This document shows, piece after piece, positions 66 through 29,174 of a stretch of DNA of 64,000 nucleotides. Made by a program: the position numbers and the translations under genes. Source of the stretch: an uncultured Candidatus Saccharibacteria bacterium (GTDB lineage Bacteria > Patescibacteriota > Minisyncoccia > Phycocordibacterales > UBA12088). Location: the NCBI GenBank assembly GCA_964635195.1, contig CAZWNC010000001.1, positions 1,312 to 65,311 on the forward strand, written 5' to 3'. The notes under the pieces were generated by a model, which saw only the letters and a list, made by a program, of their open reading frames with translations, was not told where the DNA came from and searched no databases. Positions within the stretch are counted from its first letter, which is position 1; every line of letters starts with the position of its first letter.

Positions 66-854
66 CTACCGTTTGTCAACATTCGCGATTCGTATAGCCT
101 CGAGGGTATAGCGACGGAGCGTGGTGACTTCTCTTTGTGAGATGACTTCACACGGGATGTCCCAGTGCATCGTGACGAGGTGACCGGGGGCGAGCATCTC
201 GATATCGTAGTCGGCCTCGAGACGACGAATAATCTTTTTTTCAATCGGAGCGCCGAGCATGAGCAGGTCGCCTGTGCGTATGAGTGGTTCGTAGGTGAGT
301 GTGATGTGTGGGCCGGAAACGGCGGTGACGGTGCCCCACGATACGCGACAAGAATCCATAAAGTTGACGTCGGTTTCGCCACTTATGCCACCCATCGCAT
401 GCGGAACATTGAGTACATGGTAGTTGTGGTTGGGGAGAAGGCCGGTACCGATACGCTTTTCAAGCAAGCGGTATGTTGCACGTGGGAACTTATCCTTCAT
501 GCGGAATGTGTCGGTAAGGTGACGATGTAGGGCAGCTTTTTCGATGTGTCCCAAGAGTTCATTGCCAAGCCAGTATGCTTCAACCACTCTCGGGTCGAAG
601 GGGTCTTCGATATGGTTTTCGCGCGCAATGTGTTGGAGGTAGGGGTACAATGCTTCAAATCCCTTGAGGAGCTTCTGAAGTCCAAAGTCGGTATAGCCAT
701 CGTTCACGTAGTCCCATATCTCGCGGTTCGCATCCGGACCGCAAAAATGCAGGCGGTTTGGTCCAAATGCGTAGCGGCTGCAGCGAAGTACCCCGTCCAT
801 ACTAGGTAGGGTAACGTGCGCGGGTGTGCGGAAGAATATTGACAAGTTTTCCAC
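66..854 (-). CDS. Conserved hypothetical protein (262 aa), no recognisable motif
   Basis: Long intact ORF from track. Divergent from the downstream + gene. No overlapping better ORF. Confidence 0.5.
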   Translation of the reverse strand: MENLSIFFRTPAHVTLPSMDGVLRCSRYAFGPNRLHFCGPDANREIWDYVNDGYTDFGLQKLLKGFEALYPYLQHIARENHIEDPFDPRVVEAYWLGNELLGHIEKAALHRHLTDTFRMKDKFPRATYRLLEKRIGTGLLPNHNYHVLNVPHAMGGISGETDVNFMDSCRVSWGTVTAVSGPHITLTYEPLIRTGDLLMLGAPIEKKIIRRLEADYDIEMLAPGHLVTMHWDIPCEVISQREVTTLRRYTLEAIRIANVDKR

Positions 855-4313: not shown

Positions 4314-4612
4314 TTATGTAACTACTACTAGTATTTTTTTCACAATACATCGTACCTATTCTCGCCGTAGGTCTTGTTTCGCGCTATAGTGTAGCCATTC
4401 CACACCATCTGTGATTATTGAGACTTATATTGGGAACTTGCTGACCGAGCTAAAAAAGAGAATAAAATCAGGGTGCAATTCGGCAGGACTTCAAATGTTG
4501 TGTAGGAGTTGGTTAATAAAAACTTGCTTGATCGTTTTTATAATAAGGGCTAGAAATAGAGATACAATCAGTTTTTGTTATTTCAAGTTGTCCCAAACGT
4601 AACTATTTATTC

Positions 4613-5389
4613 ATGTCCGAACTTACGATCAATCACCTTTTCGTCACTGCGGGGGAAAAACAGGTTGTGTTCGACGTGTCGCTTTCGCTCCTGGCTGGCG
4701 AAGTGGCGATACTTATGGGTCCGAACGGTTCGGGTAAAAGCACGCTCGTGAATGCGCTCATGGGCCACCCGCACTATACCGTGACGCAAGGGGAGGTGCT
4801 CCTGGACGGTGAGAGCATACTCACTCTTGCGCCCCACGAGAGGGCTCGAAAAGGCATGTTTCTTTCATTGCAGCATACTCCCAAGGTGGGTGGTGTGACG
4901 CTCGCGACTTTTTTACACGCGGTGCATACCGCACGTACTGGTGAGCAGGTCGATGTACTCGAGTATTACCTGCGTATGCGAGACCTTGCGGATGAATACG
5001 GTATTCGCAAGGACCTTCTGGATCGCCCCCTTACCGAAGGGCTCTCCGGCGGTGAACGAAAACTTTCTGAGACGCTCCAGCTCATTGCGTTCAAGCCGCA
5101 GGTCGCGTGCCTTGACGAGATAGATTCAGGTGTGGACGTGGATGCGTTACGTGTGGTGTGCGGTGCAGTGTCACGTCTTGCGCACGAGGGCACCGCGTTT
5201 TTGCTCATCAGTCACCACCCTTCGTTACTCGAACACCTCTCCCCGCAGCGGGTGCACCTCATGGCGAATGGACGCTTGGTGCGCAGTGCGGGCAGGGAAC
5301 TTGCCGACTTGGTGCATCGTGAAGGTTTTTGCCAGGCAATTGCATGTCCGATGGTGGAAGGCTGCGAGGCGGCAGGCAGGGCTGACTAG
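4613..5389 (+). CDS. sufC: Fe-S cluster assembly ATPase SufC
   Basis: Walker A GPNGSGKST, ABC signature LSGGERK, Walker B CLDEIDSGVD, H-loop. SufC-like N-terminus. Confidence 0.85.
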   Translation: MSELTINHLFVTAGEKQVVFDVSLSLLAGEVAILMGPNGSGKSTLVNALMGHPHYTVTQGEVLLDGESILTLAPHERARKGMFLSLQHTPKVGGVTLATFLHAVHTARTGEQVDVLEYYLRMRDLADEYGIRKDLLDRPLTEGLSGGERKLSETLQLIAFKPQVACLDEIDSGVDVDALRVVCGAVSRLAHEGTAFLLISHHPSLLEHLSPQRVHLMANGRLVRSAGRELADLVHREGFCQAIACPMVEGCEAAGRAD

Positions 5390-9108: not shown

Positions 9109-9271
9109 TGCTGAGTGATGTATCGACGTCGAAACGTAAGATGGATAAAAAAATAAAGTATCGACGTCGATACGACTTATCCACACTCGATATACCCTCC
9201 ACACATTGTATCGAGTGTATGTTTGCATGATAATGATAGTACGTTAACGACGAAATCTTGGTCGACGTCGT
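9088..9271. promoter_or_regulatory. Cluster of four copies of palindromic motif (A)TCGACGTCGA(T) spanning murB 3' end to histone-like gene start
   Basis: Perfect 10-mers at 9088-9097, 9123-9132 and 9161-9170. A 9/10 copy at 9262-9271. Spacings about 35-40 bp. Confidence 0.5.
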
Positions 9272-23731: not shown

Positions 23732-26167
23732 CTACATGGAGTCGGTTTGGAGATGATAGTACTGGGGTCGATTCTCGTACCGTTTGATGGCGACACGTAA
23801 TACCTCCTCCACAAGGTCTGCGTAACTCATTTTTACCAGGCGTGCCGCGCGGGGAAGTATGTCATGCGTGTCCATGTGCTGGTTTGGATTAAGCTCAAGA
23901 ACGTACGGATTGCTATTCTTGTCGACCTTTATCTCTACGATACCATAGTCATGGCAATCGAGTATATTGTATGTGTCGAGGGCGATTTCGGTTATGAGTG
24001 ACTCAAGTTTTTTATTCATGTTCATAGAGGGCTCCTCGATGGATATTTTTTCGTAGAGTGATTTGTCAACCCATTTCGCTTCGTACGGGTAAATGTGCCA
24101 AAGCCCTTCGGGGAGTGCGTCGAATGTTGAGCGTGAGAGAGGAAGAACTCGAAGGTCGTCCTCTTCGCTACCGATAATCGGCACCGCATACTCGTCTCCA
24201 TCAATGTATTCTTCTACGAGCGCCGGACTTCCGAGTTCGTGTATGACGTAAGCAAGTCGTTTTTGGAGCTGTGTCTTGTCGGTAACGACCGACTCATTGG
24301 TGATTCCAATCGAATTATCGGTGTTCGAGGGTTTAACGATAAGTGGATACTTGAGTGTCTGATCGATATCGTCTTCGGTGGTGTACGCATAGTCCCAACG
24401 CGGAGTTGGGATTCCGTGGAAAGAAAGTAGTTTTTTGATACGGATCTTGTCATTACAGAGTCCAAGGGTAAATGGATTTGATCCGGTGTAGGGTATTTGC
24501 AACATGTCCAGAAGTGCGGCCGAATGCGGTTTGAGCATGCTTGAATTATTTATTCTTCCGCAAGCATTAAATACAATATCAACATTACTATTTCGAAGTT
24601 CGTTTATGCAACGCACCGGTTCGTTCATGTCGAAAACGGTTGTCGCATATCCTCGTTCGGCAAGGGCTTCTTCAATGTGTGTGCCAACCGCCGAAAGGGC
24701 GGCCTCAATCACACCATCCTCTTCTTGAAACATGTTGTAGAGAATTCCCACGTGCAAATTGCGTTGGCTTTTGATCGAAGTGCGTCGCATGCGTTCGATT
24801 TTTGCGGCTCCCTCAAGGAGTTCTTTGTTGGTGGAAGCCATGGAAAATCGGTTGCGTCGGAGTGTCTTTCCTATCGAGGATGACGAATGGAACTTCGCAA
24901 CGTCGTACTTGATGTACTTCAAGGCTTCGTTGAAATTGTGTTCGGTATCGAGGGGGTTTTCTCCTGAAACCACAATCCAACCAAGGTACTCGTACCCTTC
25001 GGGCGGAACCAGTACCGCATCACCCGCCTGCTTAAAGAGGCAGAGCTCCTCAACCCCCGGAACTTTTTTGATGCGTTCGTCCATTTCAAGTTTAACGAGA
25101 AGCCCGGACTGTTTCGGAGTGAATGTGTTGCTCATCAAATACTTATGGGGCGTGTCCGGTTTCCGAACTTTTTGGAGGTAGATTCCGAGGGCGATTTTCA
25201 CAGCACCCTCGATGAGATCGACCCCCCATGCCTCTTTGCTAAAGGTATACGTCTCATCGCCCCCCATGCGAAGATTGATTTCAATCGGCACAGGACCTTT
25301 TCGCGTTGTTTTGGCTTCAAAATGAATACATCCGTTCTGTATTCCCAGTTTTTCAAGCACGGTCTCCGCCATTTCCACGAGCGCCTCCTGATCTTTTGCG
25401 GGAAGTTCCGAAGGGATTGCCTGCTGTGTCTCTATGAAAAAAGGTTCCTCGGTTCGGTAATTGTCGACGACGGCGAAATACTTAATTTTTCCGTTTTGAA
25501 GCAGTATGTCGACGTCGACCTCGTCACCATCGATGTAGCTTTCGACGAGAATGTCGAGTCCTTCGTTGAGTGACGATTCGATGTTCGGGGATATGTTACG
25601 TTCAATGTACTCGTAGGTATTGTAAAACTCCTCTTTGTCTTGTGCCTTGATGACAAACGCACTCCCCGAGCCGTAGGTCGGCTTGAGGACAACGGGAAAG
25701 GTGAAAGAGGTGACGACCTGTTCCAAATCCTCCTCGTCTTTGATAAGCATATGTTCCGGGGTGCGAATCCCGTTCTCGGTACAAAATTTTCGAAAGAGAA
25801 ACTTATCACGCACTTGTTTTGCAATAGCGATTGGAACGCCTATCAGGTCGAGTGCGTCTGCTATTTTTGAGGTCAGAAGCACATCGTCTTCCCAGAACGT
25901 TACCACACCATCCACTGACACGCTTGGGTTCGCGCTGAGGAATGTCTCAATATCCTCAATCACTTTTGCGTGGTTCTTGTTGTCGGTAAGTATCCATCGG
26001 TCGATGAAGGGAGCGGCCCAATTCTTTTCATGATGGATAGCAATAATGTGAAGACCGAGCTGTTTCAGTCGCTGTACGATAAACTTCTTCTTTACCGAGC
26101 CGGTATTGACCAACAAGATGGTCTTGCCGACCAGTTCAGAGCGCTCAACATCCTGTTTCTTTTTCAC
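23732..26167 (-). CDS. Two-domain ATP-grasp ligase (N-terminal carnosine-synthase/L-amino-acid-ligase-like + C-terminal D-Ala-D-Ala-ligase-like)
   Basis: N-half has PVVLKPTYGSGSAFV and IEINLRMGGDE. C-half has Ddl-like layout (HVGILYNMF..., IVFNACGRINNSSM..., YPLIVKPSNTDNSIGI, YVLELNPNQ). 811 aa. Confidence 0.7.
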   Translation of the reverse strand: MKKKQDVERSELVGKTILLVNTGSVKKKFIVQRLKQLGLHIIAIHHEKNWAAPFIDRWILTDNKNHAKVIEDIETFLSANPSVSVDGVVTFWEDDVLLTSKIADALDLIGVPIAIAKQVRDKFLFRKFCTENGIRTPEHMLIKDEEDLEQVVTSFTFPVVLKPTYGSGSAFVIKAQDKEEFYNTYEYIERNISPNIESSLNEGLDILVESYIDGDEVDVDILLQNGKIKYFAVVDNYRTEEPFFIETQQAIPSELPAKDQEALVEMAETVLEKLGIQNGCIHFEAKTTRKGPVPIEINLRMGGDETYTFSKEAWGVDLIEGAVKIALGIYLQKVRKPDTPHKYLMSNTFTPKQSGLLVKLEMDERIKKVPGVEELCLFKQAGDAVLVPPEGYEYLGWIVVSGENPLDTEHNFNEALKYIKYDVAKFHSSSSIGKTLRRNRFSMASTNKELLEGAAKIERMRRTSIKSQRNLHVGILYNMFQEEDGVIEAALSAVGTHIEEALAERGYATTVFDMNEPVRCINELRNSNVDIVFNACGRINNSSMLKPHSAALLDMLQIPYTGSNPFTLGLCNDKIRIKKLLSFHGIPTPRWDYAYTTEDDIDQTLKYPLIVKPSNTDNSIGITNESVVTDKTQLQKRLAYVIHELGSPALVEEYIDGDEYAVPIIGSEEDDLRVLPLSRSTFDALPEGLWHIYPYEAKWVDKSLYEKISIEEPSMNMNKKLESLITEIALDTYNILDCHDYGIVEIKVDKNSNPYVLELNPNQHMDTHDILPRAARLVKMSYADLVEEVLRVAIKRYENRPQYYHLQTDSM

Positions 26168-26300
26168 GGTTGTTTTGGAGGGTATAAGATTCGGTATGTT
26201 CTATTTGCATGTCGATTACATGCAGGTGTGGACATGTGGTTGCACGCATAAATATAGCGGTATTACACAATATGTCAATCAATATTGCGCAGGTGTGGTG

Positions 26301-26366: not shown

Positions 26367-26780
26367 ATGAAAGACGATCTCGGCAGGCATCTGATTGCTG
26401 AAATGGTCGTATTTCTCTGTCTGCTGTATCGGGAAGGTGCCACAGCGAAAGAATTGGAGACGCACATGAGTGTCTTCAATAACATGAAGCCCGTGACGCA
26501 GTGTGCGGTCGGGAGGTGGCTCGAAGGTCGTACCCACCCTGATGTGTCCATGGATGTCGGGGATGAATTACTCGAGACACAAGAGCATGTGGCGGTCCTA
26601 TGGTGTTCATTGGAGCATTATCTTGACATACGTACAGACTTCGGTCATCTGGAACGTGACACTCGATCCGGACGGTACTTGGTCACACCCAAAGGGAAGG
26701 TCTATTTCGATGCGAGACGTAAGGCGTTGGAGATCCATCGACTGGTGACCCAAAAAAATGTACACAAACAACCTGCGTGA
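26367..26780 (+). CDS. Hypothetical protein (137 aa), divergent from the ATP-grasp operon; possible regulator
   Basis: Strong RBS. No recognisable motif. Position suggests an operon-associated regulator but this is unproven. Confidence 0.5.
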   Translation: MKDDLGRHLIAEMVVFLCLLYREGATAKELETHMSVFNNMKPVTQCAVGRWLEGRTHPDVSMDVGDELLETQEHVAVLWCSLEHYLDIRTDFGHLERDTRSGRYLVTPKGKVYFDARRKALEIHRLVTQKNVHKQPA

Positions 26781-26932
26781 GGATGGAGAGAGACATGCTG
26801 GTTGCTACACATGTCTCTTTTTGTTGTATACATGCATGTGTTGGTAGTTTTAAAATGCACATACGAAGTTCGAGAGCGGTTCGTTTCTGGGCCCGATTGC
26901 GTACAGCGTGTGAGCGTCGTATTGCGCAGCAT

Positions 26933-26960
26933 AAAAAAGGCCGGTACTTGGACCGGCCTT
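26933..26960 (-). terminator. Rho-independent terminator on minus strand (GGCCGGT hairpin + U6)
   Basis: Minus-strand reading aaggccggtccaagtaccggccTTTTTT, 77 nt downstream of the stop of the 27037..27237 minus ORF. Confidence 0.65.
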
Positions 26961-27036
26961 GTGTGCGTCTGTGTGGTTTGAACTGTGTGCAGACCTGTCG
27001 CGTTGAGTATCAAATACGTCTGCGCGGTTTACCCCA

Positions 27037-27237
27037 CTACGTAGGTATCGTTTCGCGAAGGGAAGTACCTTTTGACACACAAACATCAGATTTCCAGCGA
27101 GAAATGCAGTGACCGGTGTCTGATGGGCAGGTGGACTTTTGGATTTTTCGTGCGCAGCGTCCTGATTCGGGTAAGCGGTTACACTCCTTCAGTTGTGCTC
27201 CAAGCGGAGTCTCAAGTTCAGTGCTGTAAGAAATCAT
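27037..27237 (-). CDS. Small Cys-rich protein (66 aa, 5-6 Cys, no signal peptide)
   Basis: SD GAGGA 9 nt upstream of ATG. Own terminator. Cys spacing C-x8-C-x8-C-x6-C-x8-C. Could still be non-coding. Confidence 0.4.
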   Translation of the reverse strand: MISYSTELETPLGAQLKECNRLPESGRCARKIQKSTCPSDTGHCISRWKSDVCVSKGTSLRETIPT

Positions 27238-27288
27238 TGTCTAAATCCTCGTATTGTGTATTTGTAAAGAGCAGTTTGAAACAGAAAC

Positions 27289-27304
27289 CCTGACACGTGT
27301 CAGG
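27289..27304. promoter_or_regulatory. 16-bp perfect palindrome CCTGACACGTGTCAGG plus two further TGACAC/GTGTCA half-sites (27344-27349, 27385-27390) in divergent promoter region
   Basis: Seen directly. Lies between the small Cys-rich gene (-) and the helicase gene (+). Confidence 0.5.
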
Positions 27305-27419
27305 CGTGTGCGTTGTTTCTACGCGTTGGTAATGCCGACAACCTGACACCTGGTGCGTTTTAGATACAATCTGAACGATAACCGTGTCAGCACTGTGCTA
27401 GCATCAATATACGGAGGGG

Positions 27420-29174
27420 GTGCGGCAACGGCAAGGGAGACATTGTGGAAAAGTGTGTTCATGTGTGGAGTGTGCTAGTCTGTTAGGCATGACACAAGAT
27501 GAGGCCTTTGCGATACTGTGTATGGGTAAAAACGTGTTTTTGACCGGTGCGGCGGGGAGTGGCAAGACCTACGTCATCAACCGCTACGTACGATGGTTGC
27601 GTGAGCGCGGTATCGAGCCAGCTGTCACTGCGTCAACGGGGATTGCCGCTACACACATCGGGGGTCAAACGATCCACAGTTGGTCGGGAATCGGAGTAAA
27701 AGAGTACCTTGGTCCATACGAACTCGATCACATTGCGCAGAACGAACGCTTGGTCAAGCGCTTTCAAGGCACGCAGGTACTTATTATCGATGAAGTATCG
27801 ATGCTTGCCGGCAATACGCTTGGTCTTGTGGATCAGGCATTGCGCGCAGGCCTTTCCAAGGAAGAGCCGTTCGGAGGTCTGCAGGTGATACTGTGTGGTG
27901 ATTTTTTTCAGCTACCCCCGGTGGTACGAGGAAATGGCATGATGCAGTTTGCGTTTCAGAGTGATGCGTGGCATGCGCTTGGGCTCGTCGTATGCTATCT
28001 CCATGAACAATACCGCCAGGATGACGAAGCACTGCTTGCAATTTTGAACGGTATTCGAGCAGGTGATGTATCACACGCACTCCGTGCAATGCTCGAAATG
28101 CGTATCGGATGTGTTTCCCCAACCGAGGTTCCCCATCTCTACACACACAATGTCGACGTCGACCGTTTAAATACTGAGCGCCTCGCTCTTTTAGAGGGTC
28201 CTGCACGTTCGTACCATATGCGTACCAAGGGAAGCAAAAAACACCTTGAATTGCTCAAGCGCGGTACGATGGTGCCTGAAGTATTGCAAATCAAAGAAGG
28301 TGCGGTGGTGATGTGCATCAAGAACCATCCACAAGGTAAATATGTGAACGGAACATTGGGTACGGTCGTGCGTTTTGCCGGAATTGGAAACCCTGTAATA
28401 GTGACACGTGCCGGCGTTGAGCTCGAAATAGAAGAAGATAGTTGGAAGATGGAAGATGGTGACAAAGTAAAGGCGGAGCTTATACAAATCCCTCTTCGTC
28501 TCGCATGGGCGGTTACTGTGCACAAGAGCCAAGGGCTTACTCTTGATGCGGCACAAATTGACCTGCGTAAGACGTTTGTCGAGGGGCAGGGCTATGTGTC
28601 ACTCTCGCGGGTTCGCTCACTCACCGGTCTCTATCTTGAAGGAATATCCGAGCTTGCCTACGGGAGACACCCTGCGGTTGCCGAGGCAGATCAATTTTTT
28701 ATTGCAGCATCCGACATGAGTGTGCGACGACTCACAGTAACTTCGCAGGAACGAGTGTTAGAACTGACGAATGAGTTCATTCGCTCGTGTGGAGGCCACC
28801 TGCCGGATCCGAAACGGAGCGCGGTAAAGAGTAAAAAGGGGGCAAAAGAGGGGACATATGACAAAACGTTACGTATGGTCCGTGAGCACATGAGCATACA
28901 AGAAATTGCCGATGAGCGTGAGTACAGTGAAGATACAATCATGACACACATCGAACGCTTGATGCGTCAAGGTGTTTTGAGTACAAAAGATATAGCATAT
29001 CTTGCCCCAAACGATGATTCATTCGAAGCTGTTTTGAAGGAAGTCGCAGAGGCCTTTGAAACACTGGGGGTATGGAATCTTGCGCCGGTGCGTGCACACC
29101 TCGATGACCGTTTTAGTTACCCGGAACTCCGTTTCCTGCGTCTCTTCGTACAGAAGAGCGACGGCGTTGCGTGA
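27420..29174 (+). CDS. PIF1/RecD-like superfamily-1 helicase with C-terminal HTH-like domain
   Basis: Walker A GAAGSGKT, Walker B LIIDEVSM, C-terminal helicase motif VTVHKSQGLTLD, then a helix-turn-helix-like tail. True start may be M at 27489. Confidence 0.75.
   Translation: MRQRQGRHCGKVCSCVECASLLGMTQDEAFAILCMGKNVFLTGAAGSGKTYVINRYVRWLRERGIEPAVTASTGIAATHIGGQTIHSWSGIGVKEYLGPYELDHIAQNERLVKRFQGTQVLIIDEVSMLAGNTLGLVDQALRAGLSKEEPFGGLQVILCGDFFQLPPVVRGNGMMQFAFQSDAWHALGLVVCYLHEQYRQDDEALLAILNGIRAGDVSHALRAMLEMRIGCVSPTEVPHLYTHNVDVDRLNTERLALLEGPARSYHMRTKGSKKHLELLKRGTMVPEVLQIKEGAVVMCIKNHPQGKYVNGTLGTVVRFAGIGNPVIVTRAGVELEIEEDSWKMEDGDKVKAELIQIPLRLAWAVTVHKSQGLTLDAAQIDLRKTFVEGQGYVSLSRVRSLTGLYLEGISELAYGRHPAVAEADQFFIAASDMSVRRLTVTSQERVLELTNEFIRSCGGHLPDPKRSAVKSKKGAKEGTYDKTLRMVREHMSIQEIADEREYSEDTIMTHIERLMRQGVLSTKDIAYLAPNDDSFEAVLKEVAEAFETLGVWNLAPVRAHLDDRFSYPELRFLRLFVQKSDGVA

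Follow-up and report, generated by a model that had tools for sequence, protein, structure and literature searches.

The window analyzed here is a 64,000-nucleotide (nt) stretch of contig CAZWNC010000001.1 (assembly GCA_964635195.1). It carries, on its minus strand, a 66-codon open reading frame (ORF) for a Cys-rich peptide, located downstream of a perfect 16-bp palindrome that had originally been predicted to be an operator. The ORF and its flanks probably form an autonomous minus-strand unit, in which a lineage-restricted microprotein is produced from behind an RNA leader with a terminator/antiterminator switch. The comparison set is composed of five loci: the window and four contigs (L036, L037, L043, and L042) from relatives in the Paceibacterota of the Candidate Phyla Radiation (CPR). 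The closer relatives, L036 and L037, were located through homology of the adjacent helicase, L043 through a phmmer search, and L042 through a covariance model of the leader.

A conserved Cys-rich microprotein gene

The original prediction placed a small ORF with regularly spaced Cys residues at 27237..27037, and it is present there. The Cys residues of its 66-amino acid product are found at positions 19, 28, 37, 44, and 53, giving spacings of x8, x8, x6, and x8. Homologous ORFs of 62-78 codons occupy the same position in L037, L036, L043, and L042. The L037 homologue is 64-66 amino acids long and 61% identical (tblastn 5e-17), and the L036 homologue is 67 amino acids long and 28-40% identical. 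When 1.84 billion representative proteins were searched by phmmer with the window peptide, P0121 was recovered (62 amino acids, E 1.2e-7), a protein encoded on contig L043. The L042 member is a divergent 78-amino acid ORF, recognized by scaffold and context, that keeps C-x8-C-x8-C and a further C-x6-C. Residues C19, C28, and C37 are invariant in all five sequences. When L042 is set aside, the remaining four share M1, P11, C19, N20, R21, R27, C28, C37, P38, S46, and R47.

The substitutions between these ORFs are of the coding type. Across comparisons, the proportion of differing nonsynonymous sites (pN) is 0.34-0.50 and that of synonymous sites (pS) is 0.65-0.83, though the synonymous sites are saturated and permit no precise ratio. 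Between the window and L037, pN is 0.34 and pS is 0.76, and the differing sites number 23, 20, and 39 at codon positions 1, 2, and 3, respectively. Third codon positions vary most in most of the pairwise comparisons. Conservation of the reading frame in homologous regions had been proposed as a check on the gene, and frame, length, and Cys scaffold are all kept in the four other loci. Because the frame, the scaffold, and this pattern of substitution persist across relatives, comparative evidence indicates that the 66-codon ORF is a real, conserved, and unannotated gene in a narrow group of Paceibacterota.

The Shine-Dalgarno (SD) sequence GAGGA that had been claimed for the ORF is found at 27250..27246. 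Purine-rich equivalents (AGGAG, GAAGG, GAGG, and GAGGG) are found in the relatives. Use of SD sequences seems low in the window genome, and the conserved SD of the peptide gene stands out. By a crude count in which the first ATG was taken, GGAG, GAGG, or AGGA occurs 4-20 nt upstream of just 6 of 49 long ORFs in the window.

 Neither the three-sequence peptide alignment, used in a word-indexed protein search, nor a hidden Markov model of four peptides, run against six-frame translations of 44 loci, returned a further member, and the latter search also missed the divergent L042 protein.

The palindrome as a probable leader terminator

The palindrome CCTGACACGTGTCAGG is found at 27289-27304, as originally described, and its core TGACACGTGTCA occurs only once in the window. 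By itself, such a palindrome is unremarkable. The window has five perfect 16-bp palindromes, and about one is expected. The other four are at 9158, 38697, 38782, and 57212; none of them contains TGACAC, and the one at 9158 follows an A-run.

When transcribed from the peptide strand, the palindrome becomes the hairpin CCUGAC-ACGU-GUCAGG. The corresponding hairpins are CCUGAC-GCAA-GUC(A/G)GG in L036 and L037, CCUGAC-GAGA-GUCAGG in L043, and CCUGGC-GCAA-GCCGGG in L042. In the aligned intergenic regions, just the six outer pairs are conserved, and the center varies (ACGT, GCAA, or GAGA). On the peptide strand, every pair of the stem forms in all five loci (100% paired). It includes one compensatory A-U to G-C change and two U-G cells, which are C-A mismatches on the opposite strand. 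On the peptide strand, a terminator scan flagged the hairpin as terminator-like in the window, L036, L037, and L043. In the window, the tail that follows is interrupted (GTTTCTGTTT), and the relatives have a clean UUUUUU(U).

The hairpin lies about 50 nt upstream of the peptide start codon in the window. The start codon follows the U-run by only about 32-37 nt in L037 and L036, a gap in which an independent promoter would be unlikely to fit, and no conserved promoter hexamers were found between hairpin and ATG in the aligned loci. A consensus scan instead identified TTGCCG-17-TATATT on the minus strand at 27434..27406 and also found the promoter in L036. The elements TTG and TAnAnT, separated by a 16-17-nt spacer, are common to all five loci. 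They lie about 160 nt upstream of the peptide ATG and about 95 nt upstream of the palindrome hairpin. This is consistent with a sigma-70-like promoter, from which we infer a transcription start near 27399. Since the conserved promoter consensus lies upstream of it, the hairpin is placed within the predicted 5' leader. The palindrome is therefore most likely an intrinsic terminator hairpin inside a leader and not a DNA operator.

The predicted leader is conserved as a unit. Its covariance model, R1, gives the window a score of 95 bits and the relatives 54-134 bits, and it matches only these five loci in 367 kb of related sequence. In L042, the model places the leader directly upstream of the 78-amino acid Cys-scaffold ORF. 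No Rfam 15 family was matched by window positions 26700-27560 at E values up to 10, or by L043 and L037 at E values up to 5. Between the leader terminator and the SD is a GCUCUUU/GUUCUUU motif that RNAalifold pairs with the SD region. This weak evidence makes the motif possibly an anti-SD element.

The unit also ends with a hairpin of its own. The dedicated rho-independent terminator that had been proposed downstream of the ORF is borne out by a nine-pair minus-strand stem at 26960..26937 that has six G-C pairs and leads into a T-run. Hairpins are found at the equivalent 3' position in L036 (4547-4575), at the end of the L037 contig, and in L043 (748-770), and L036 and L043 have 3' untranslated regions (UTRs) of 70-90 nt. 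Both window hairpins (26937-26960 and 27289-27304) resemble known rho-independent terminators in their G+C-rich stems, 4-6-nt loops, and U-rich tails on the minus strand. The leader hairpin differs from typical intrinsic terminators in its interrupted tail (GUUUCUGUUUC) and in the extension of its stem to a perfect 16-nt palindrome, which has no counterpart in the relatives.

The autonomy that had been proposed for the unit is supported by the presence of its own promoter, leader, SD, ORF, and terminator. Moreover, the unit stays intact in L042, where a membrane-protein gene separates the leader and the 78-aa ORF from the helicase. This separation shows the module to be autonomous and its link to the helicase not to be obligatory.

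A putative attenuator

In addition to the palindrome, the original prediction reported two further copies of TGACAC/GTGTCA, and these are present at 27344 and 27384. The longer motif CTGACAC/GTGTCAG has seven copies in 64 kb, and four of them fall within the 102 bp at 27290-27391. In 300 shuffles, the largest cluster was two, indicating that the clustering is not due to chance. These copies had been interpreted as protein-binding half-sites. Their complementarity indicates that they behave as RNA pairing partners instead.

Four segments of the leader are involved. Segments C and D are the 5' and 3' halves of the terminator hairpin, and segments B and A, the second and third "half-sites," lie upstream (Table 1). 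Segment B is complementary to C, and segment A is complementary to B. The B:C helix is 94% paired over the five loci, with two compensatory pairs and four G-U cells, and slid controls are 14-36% paired. L042 has an A-to-G change in segment C that is matched by a compensating change in D and still pairs with B as U-G, the outcome expected of a segment that has to pair with both partners. For A:B, pairing reaches 86% among four sequences, with two compensatory pairs, which is weak evidence. In the relatives, a longer 5' helix encloses segment B.

Constrained folding gave energies of -37.8 kcal/mol for the terminator state and -36.3 kcal/mol for the antiterminator state in L037, -38.4 and -31.4 kcal/mol in L036, -38.6 and -28.8 kcal/mol in L043, and -33.2 and -37.0 kcal/mol in the window. 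The lowest-energy fold is thus the terminator state in L037, L036, and L043 and the antiterminator (B:C) in the window. Three mutually exclusive helices, for sequestration, antitermination, and termination, give the leader the anatomy of an attenuator. The model is well supported by this anatomy and only modestly by the statistics.

In the proposed mechanism, transcription would start near 27399 and proceed through a leader of about 160 nt, the SD, and the 66-codon ORF to the terminator at 26960-26931. Pairing of B with C, the 5' half of the hairpin, would form the antiterminator and allow read-through. Sequestration of B, by A or by the 5' domain of the leader, would allow the C:D terminator to form. 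The leader would therefore switch between a terminating fold and a read-through fold, which amounts to transcription attenuation.

A short upstream ORF may be what sets this switch. An ORF of 21-23 codons, rich in Val, Ile, and Leu, is found in L036, L037, L043, and L042. It spans segments A and B and ends just after B. Its ATG lies exactly 6 nt after the -10 hexamer in all four relatives, which is the expected transcription start, and the ORF would thus be leaderless. An in-frame 3-nt indel and conservative exchanges among Val, Ile, and Leu hint at translation, and it is plausible that the ORF is translated in the relatives. A Val/Ile/Leu-rich ORF positioned over A and B suggests a ribosome-mediated switch of the trp/ilv or antibiotic-leader kind. 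If the ORF is translated, a ribosome stalled early would free B for the antiterminator, and a ribosome that reaches the stop codon would mask B. Without translation, B would stay sequestered.

Table 1. Positions of the predicted features of the microprotein unit in the window and of the upstream ORFs in the relatives.
Feature	Position	Strand	Basis or remark
-35 element TTGCCG of the peptide unit	27429..27434	-	Consensus scan
-10 element TATATT of the peptide unit	27406..27411	-	Consensus scan
5' leader RNA, about 160 nt, predicted	27238..27399	-	Conserved in five loci
Segment A, CUGACAC on RNA, third "half-site"	27384..27390	-	Complementary to segment B
Segment B, GGUGUCAGG / GUGUCAGG on RNA, second "half-site," putative antiterminator 5' strand	about 27342..27350	-	Complementary to C
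Segment C, hairpin 5' half	27304..27297	-	Pairs with B or D
Segment D, hairpin 3' half	27296..27289	-	Pairs with C
Hairpin CCUGAC-ACGU-GUCAGG (C and D)	27289..27304	-	Scan: terminator-like
U-rich tail after the hairpin, GUUUCUGUUUC, degenerate in the window	27278..27288	-	Scan and folding
GCUCUUU/GUUCUUU motif between leader terminator and SD	27266..27272	-	TCTTT invariant in five loci
Shine-Dalgarno GAGGA, 8 nt before ATG	27246..27250	-	Read from the sequence
Cys-rich microprotein coding sequence, 66 amino acids	27037..27237	-	ORF list and homologues
3' UTR, about 76 nt (stop codon to terminator)	26961..27036	-	Distance
Intrinsic terminator of the unit, stem GGCCGGU/ACCGGCC and U-run	26931..26960	-	Terminator scan
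Upstream ORF of L036, MHKSNAVVVLLFVGTHHASGLCA	4935-5006	-	
Upstream ORF of L037, MHGVNAVVLRFIETHHASGSCA	357-425	-	
Upstream ORF of L043, MYTRGVIAVLVIIEKRFASGCCA	311-382	+	
Upstream ORF of L042, MQKSMASVILLVVEKRTASGF	494-559	-	

The protein product

Each family member has at least four Cys residues, an acidic N-terminus, and a basic, Cys-rich core, with no hydrophobic core. No member matches an entry in Pfam, NCBIfam, PHROG, PADLOC, or the PDB sequences. The best domain match is zf-CCCH for P0121, and at E 0.045 it is below the cut-off. The window product appears to have no signal peptide, judging only from a reading of its polar, acidic N-terminus MISYSTELETPLGAQLKE.

Because the chain is rich in Cys and has no hydrophobic core, metal or disulfides would be needed for folding. 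A basic protein of about 65 amino acids built on C-x8-C-x8-C-x6-C most likely requires either a metal bound by four thiolates or disulfide bonds. With no signal peptide evident, our guess favors a tetrathiolate metal site. The originally suggested roles as a metal-binding, redox, or toxin-like peptide are all conjectural. In their size of about 65 amino acids, their four or more Cys residues in every member, their basic character, and their lack of a hydrophobic core, these proteins are similar to small Cys-coordinated zinc proteins such as zinc ribbons and C4 microproteins. Unlike these, the family has no CxxC knuckles, its spacing being C-x8-C-x8-C-x6-C, and it has no Pfam, NCBIfam, or PDB match, the zf-CCCH hint being below threshold.

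A more distant protein shares one feature of the peptide. P0123 is a 267-amino acid protein encoded on a 90-kb European Nucleotide Archive contig. By eye, its N-terminus is signal-peptide-like, and it contains repeats of NEIRECLRTPSTARCQGVLN that resemble the loop KECNRLPESGRCARKI (C-x-R-x-P-x3-R-C) of the peptide. Its phmmer E-value of 3.7e-7 may be inflated by the repeats.

Opposing observations and alternative explanations

Several observations weigh against the gene, the switch, or the proposed product. At -0.088 per codon, the codon usage of the 66-codon ORF falls in the range of spurious ORFs (the mean for real genes is 0.27, and their 5th percentile is 0.095). Gene callers passed over the ORF in three of the five contigs and called it in L043 and L042, and the window peptide was not found by a word-indexed search of a 5.8-billion protein set. 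For the RNA model, the evidence is five sequences only. The shuffle controls are not decisive, with 48-100 of 500 shuffles reaching the observed values. Taken whole, the 476-nt minus-strand transcript shows no unusual degree of structure (z = -0.3), two of the A:B cells pair only on the opposite strand, and the -35 hexamers of L037 and L043 are below the scan threshold. The codon-position counts of the upstream ORF are flat with no clear bias, and the same bases are constrained by RNA pairing. Moreover, the window itself has no upstream ORF at about 27320-27399; a 1-nt deletion turns the ATG into A-G, and the stop codon is lost. The decayed frame still reads HSADTVIVQIVSKTHQVSGC. Lastly, the AlphaFold model, built from a two-sequence alignment, is unreliable (predicted local distance difference test score, or pLDDT, of 48) and supports neither a fold nor a metal site.

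The loss of its upstream ORF, its degenerate U-run, and its favored antiterminator fold suggest that the window copy is probably largely read through or is regulated otherwise, and it may be constitutively on.

Four other explanations of the locus were weighed. The spurious-like codon usage, the lack of a family match, and the failure of most gene callers would also fit a small RNA or a decaying remnant whose 66-codon frame is open by chance. Such an origin would be extremely surprising, as five loci keep a frame of 62-78 codons open although their synonymous divergence is saturated, certain Cys, Asn, Arg, and Pro residues do not vary, the SD is conserved, and P0121 was matched at E 1.2e-7 among 1.84 billion proteins. 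If the ORF is coding, its product could instead be exported, as a secreted or modified ribosomal peptide (bacteriocin-like, or the precursor of a ribosomally synthesized and post-translationally modified peptide) with an acidic N-terminal leader and a disulfide-bonded Cys-rich core, possibly processed with the help of a nearby double ATP-grasp enzyme. By eye, ELETPLGA in the window N-terminus resembles the end of a double-glycine-type leader, and KSTCPSD is loosely like the microviridin core TxKxPSD. The 811-amino acid double ATP-grasp gene is two genes away in the window and in L036, and P0123, with its signal-peptide-like N-terminus, has repeats of a similar C-x-R-x-P-x3-R-C loop. However, neither the GA motif nor PSD is conserved (PRNI and CPAR in L043, CPLE in L036), the ATP-grasp gene belongs to another transcription unit and is missing from L043 and L042, there is no linked gene for a transporter or protease, and the P0123 match is possibly inflated by its repeats. 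Export of this kind is thus highly unlikely. The more specific candidate of a double-glycine bacteriocin or graspetide (microviridin-like) precursor was rejected, since neither the candidate motifs nor the ATP-grasp neighbor is conserved.

The other two explanations concern the palindrome. As an operator, the palindrome and its TGACAC half-sites would be bound by a dimeric transcription factor acting on the peptide gene, on the divergent helicase gene, or on both. Four CTGACAC copies within 102 bp are far beyond chance, they sit between divergent genes, and in relatives the repeat changes in concert at three sites (GACAC to GACGC), as in co-evolution with a factor; the conserved 137-amino acid neighboring protein has no assigned function. 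This explanation is quite improbable. Just the six-pair stem is kept, its changes are compensatory, and its center is free to vary; the A-U to G-C change and the G-U pairs matter to an RNA and not to a DNA site; and U-runs and A-runs flank the stem in the relatives. Furthermore, the conserved promoter is about 95 nt upstream of the site and is not overlapped by it, no DNA-binding domain was detected in the 137-amino acid protein, and this protein is missing from L043 and L042 though the repeats are kept. The original operator assignment is therefore set aside. Alternatively, the hairpin could be a bidirectional terminator that insulates the helicase and peptide units, with a peptide promoter that overlaps or follows it and with upstream complementarity that has no function. 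The L036 hairpin, which lies between a preceding A-run and a following T-run, is indeed terminator-like in both orientations, the L043 hairpin is also flagged on the opposite strand with a weak tail, and five sequences give only weak covariation statistics for the antiterminator. An insulator is nonetheless unlikely, because the 32-51 nt between hairpin and ATG hold no conserved promoter-like hexamers and the conserved TTG/TAnAnT promoter lies about 160 nt upstream instead. The L037 hairpin is terminator-like on the peptide strand alone, and the L042 module keeps its whole leader away from the helicase. A plus-strand reading, in which the same elements form the 5' leader of the helicase, was rejected because the G-U pairs of terminator and antiterminator fit the minus strand only.

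Neighboring genes and distribution

The peptide unit lies within a 708-bp stretch (26781-27488) that ranks third among the window regions without a long ORF. The window belongs to a CPR bacterium of the Paceibacterota. The helicase that adjoins the peptide unit has an identical counterpart at NCBI, in a cluster with "Candidatus Pacebacteria/Paceibacterota" entries, and is 45% identical to Wolfebacteria helicases. P0125 (MBP9749624.1) is a closer relative, with a helicase at least 90% identical to that of the window. The homologous ORFs adjoin a Pif1-type helicase at the same position in L037, L036, and L043, and in L043 the peptide ORF is divergent from the N-terminus of this helicase. The helicase of L036 is 74% identical to that of the window, and its gene order is the same: ATP-grasp gene, a 125-amino acid homologue of the window's 137-amino acid ORF, a gap, and the helicase. 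The L037 helicase is 72% identical, and its contig ends 470 bp upstream of the helicase. Helicase-based scans of genome and metagenome contigs returned only relatives with identities up to about 50% and no synteny. The peptide module is not present on the contigs of P0004, P0005, P0007, P0011, and P0013, which are helicase homologues with 57-67% identity.

The hypothetical ORF of 137 amino acids at 26367-26780 (plus strand) is real, having a 125-amino acid homologue with 45% identity at the same position in L036, and an identical copy of the protein is found in a Logan contig from SRR12762304. It has no Pfam, PHROG, or PADLOC family match and no detected DNA-binding domain. L043 and L042 have the peptide module without this gene, which is therefore not its obligate partner. 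Directly after it, at 26790-26825 (plus strand), is a separate terminator-like hairpin, AGAGACATG...CATGTCTCT followed by TTTTGTTG. In L036, the single bidirectional hairpin at 4547-4575 appears to serve both convergent genes.

The 811-amino acid protein encoded at 23732-26167 (minus strand) has two ATP-grasp modules, ATP-grasp_4 with LAL_C2 and Dala_Dala_lig_C. Its gene comes with a strong promoter-like site of its own (TTGACA-16-TATATT, 26278..26251) and forms a separate transcription unit that is conserved beside the 125-amino acid gene in L036 and absent from L043 and L042.

On the helicase side, the 22-nt box GACAYTGTGGAAAAGTGTGTTC at 27439-27460 (plus strand) is nearly invariant in the window, L036, L037, and L043. 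On one side of it is the minus-strand -35 element and on the other the helicase ATG. The L043 copy overlaps a good promoter in the helicase direction (GTGACA-17-CATAAT), and the box is absent beside the L042 helicase. The box may be a helicase promoter or 5' UTR element, or an upstream element of the peptide promoter. An N-terminal extension of the helicase through the box was considered and rejected, since the window and L036 differ by a 1-nt indel that puts them out of frame with each other; the box is therefore not coding.

Relation to known regulatory systems and significance

Leader-peptide attenuators control the trp, ilv, and leu operons, and antibiotic-responsive leaders of resistance genes have been found by Term-seq. 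The locus described here shares with them a predicted promoter, a leader of about 150 nt, and an intrinsic terminator just before the structural gene. It also shares an antiterminator that uses one strand of the terminator, an upstream segment that can sequester the antiterminator, and, in four of the five loci, a short Val/Ile/Leu-rich ORF over the first two segments. It differs from these attenuators in that the upstream ORF would be leaderless, with its AUG at the predicted transcription start, and in that a single orphan microprotein gene would be regulated in place of an operon for biosynthesis or resistance. Moreover, the host belongs to the CPR, and the window copy has no upstream ORF. 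A literature search found no report of leader-peptide attenuation in the CPR. Palindromic operators of dimeric repressors offer the other comparison. They are similar in having a perfect inverted repeat with half-site-like copies between divergent genes. Here, however, conservation follows base-pairing rules and not sequence identity, the position is inside the leader transcript, and no cognate DNA-binding protein was identified.

The locus represents a narrowly distributed, new microprotein family behind an attenuator-like leader. A bolder version of this reading is tentative but possible. Under it, a ribosome-sensing attenuator of the CPR, with a leaderless and hydrophobic ORF of 21-23 codons, would control a previously unseen family of metal-binding C-x8-C-x8-C-x6-C microproteins. 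The window would then represent a lineage in which the sensor ORF has decayed and the switch has been rebuilt from four perfect TGACAC repeats.

The locus also carries a caution, as "half-sites" close to a perfect palindrome can belong to an RNA switch and not to a protein-binding operator, and the comparison of even a few relatives can separate the two. Small proteins and regulatory leaders are routinely missed in the genomes of uncultivated bacteria, as is seen here, where the ORF was skipped in three of five contigs. If the attenuator model is true, the unit would provide a compact and testable case of attenuation in a CPR lineage. It would also add a new family of Cys-scaffold microproteins, whose tightly gated expression would hint at a role in stress or host interaction.

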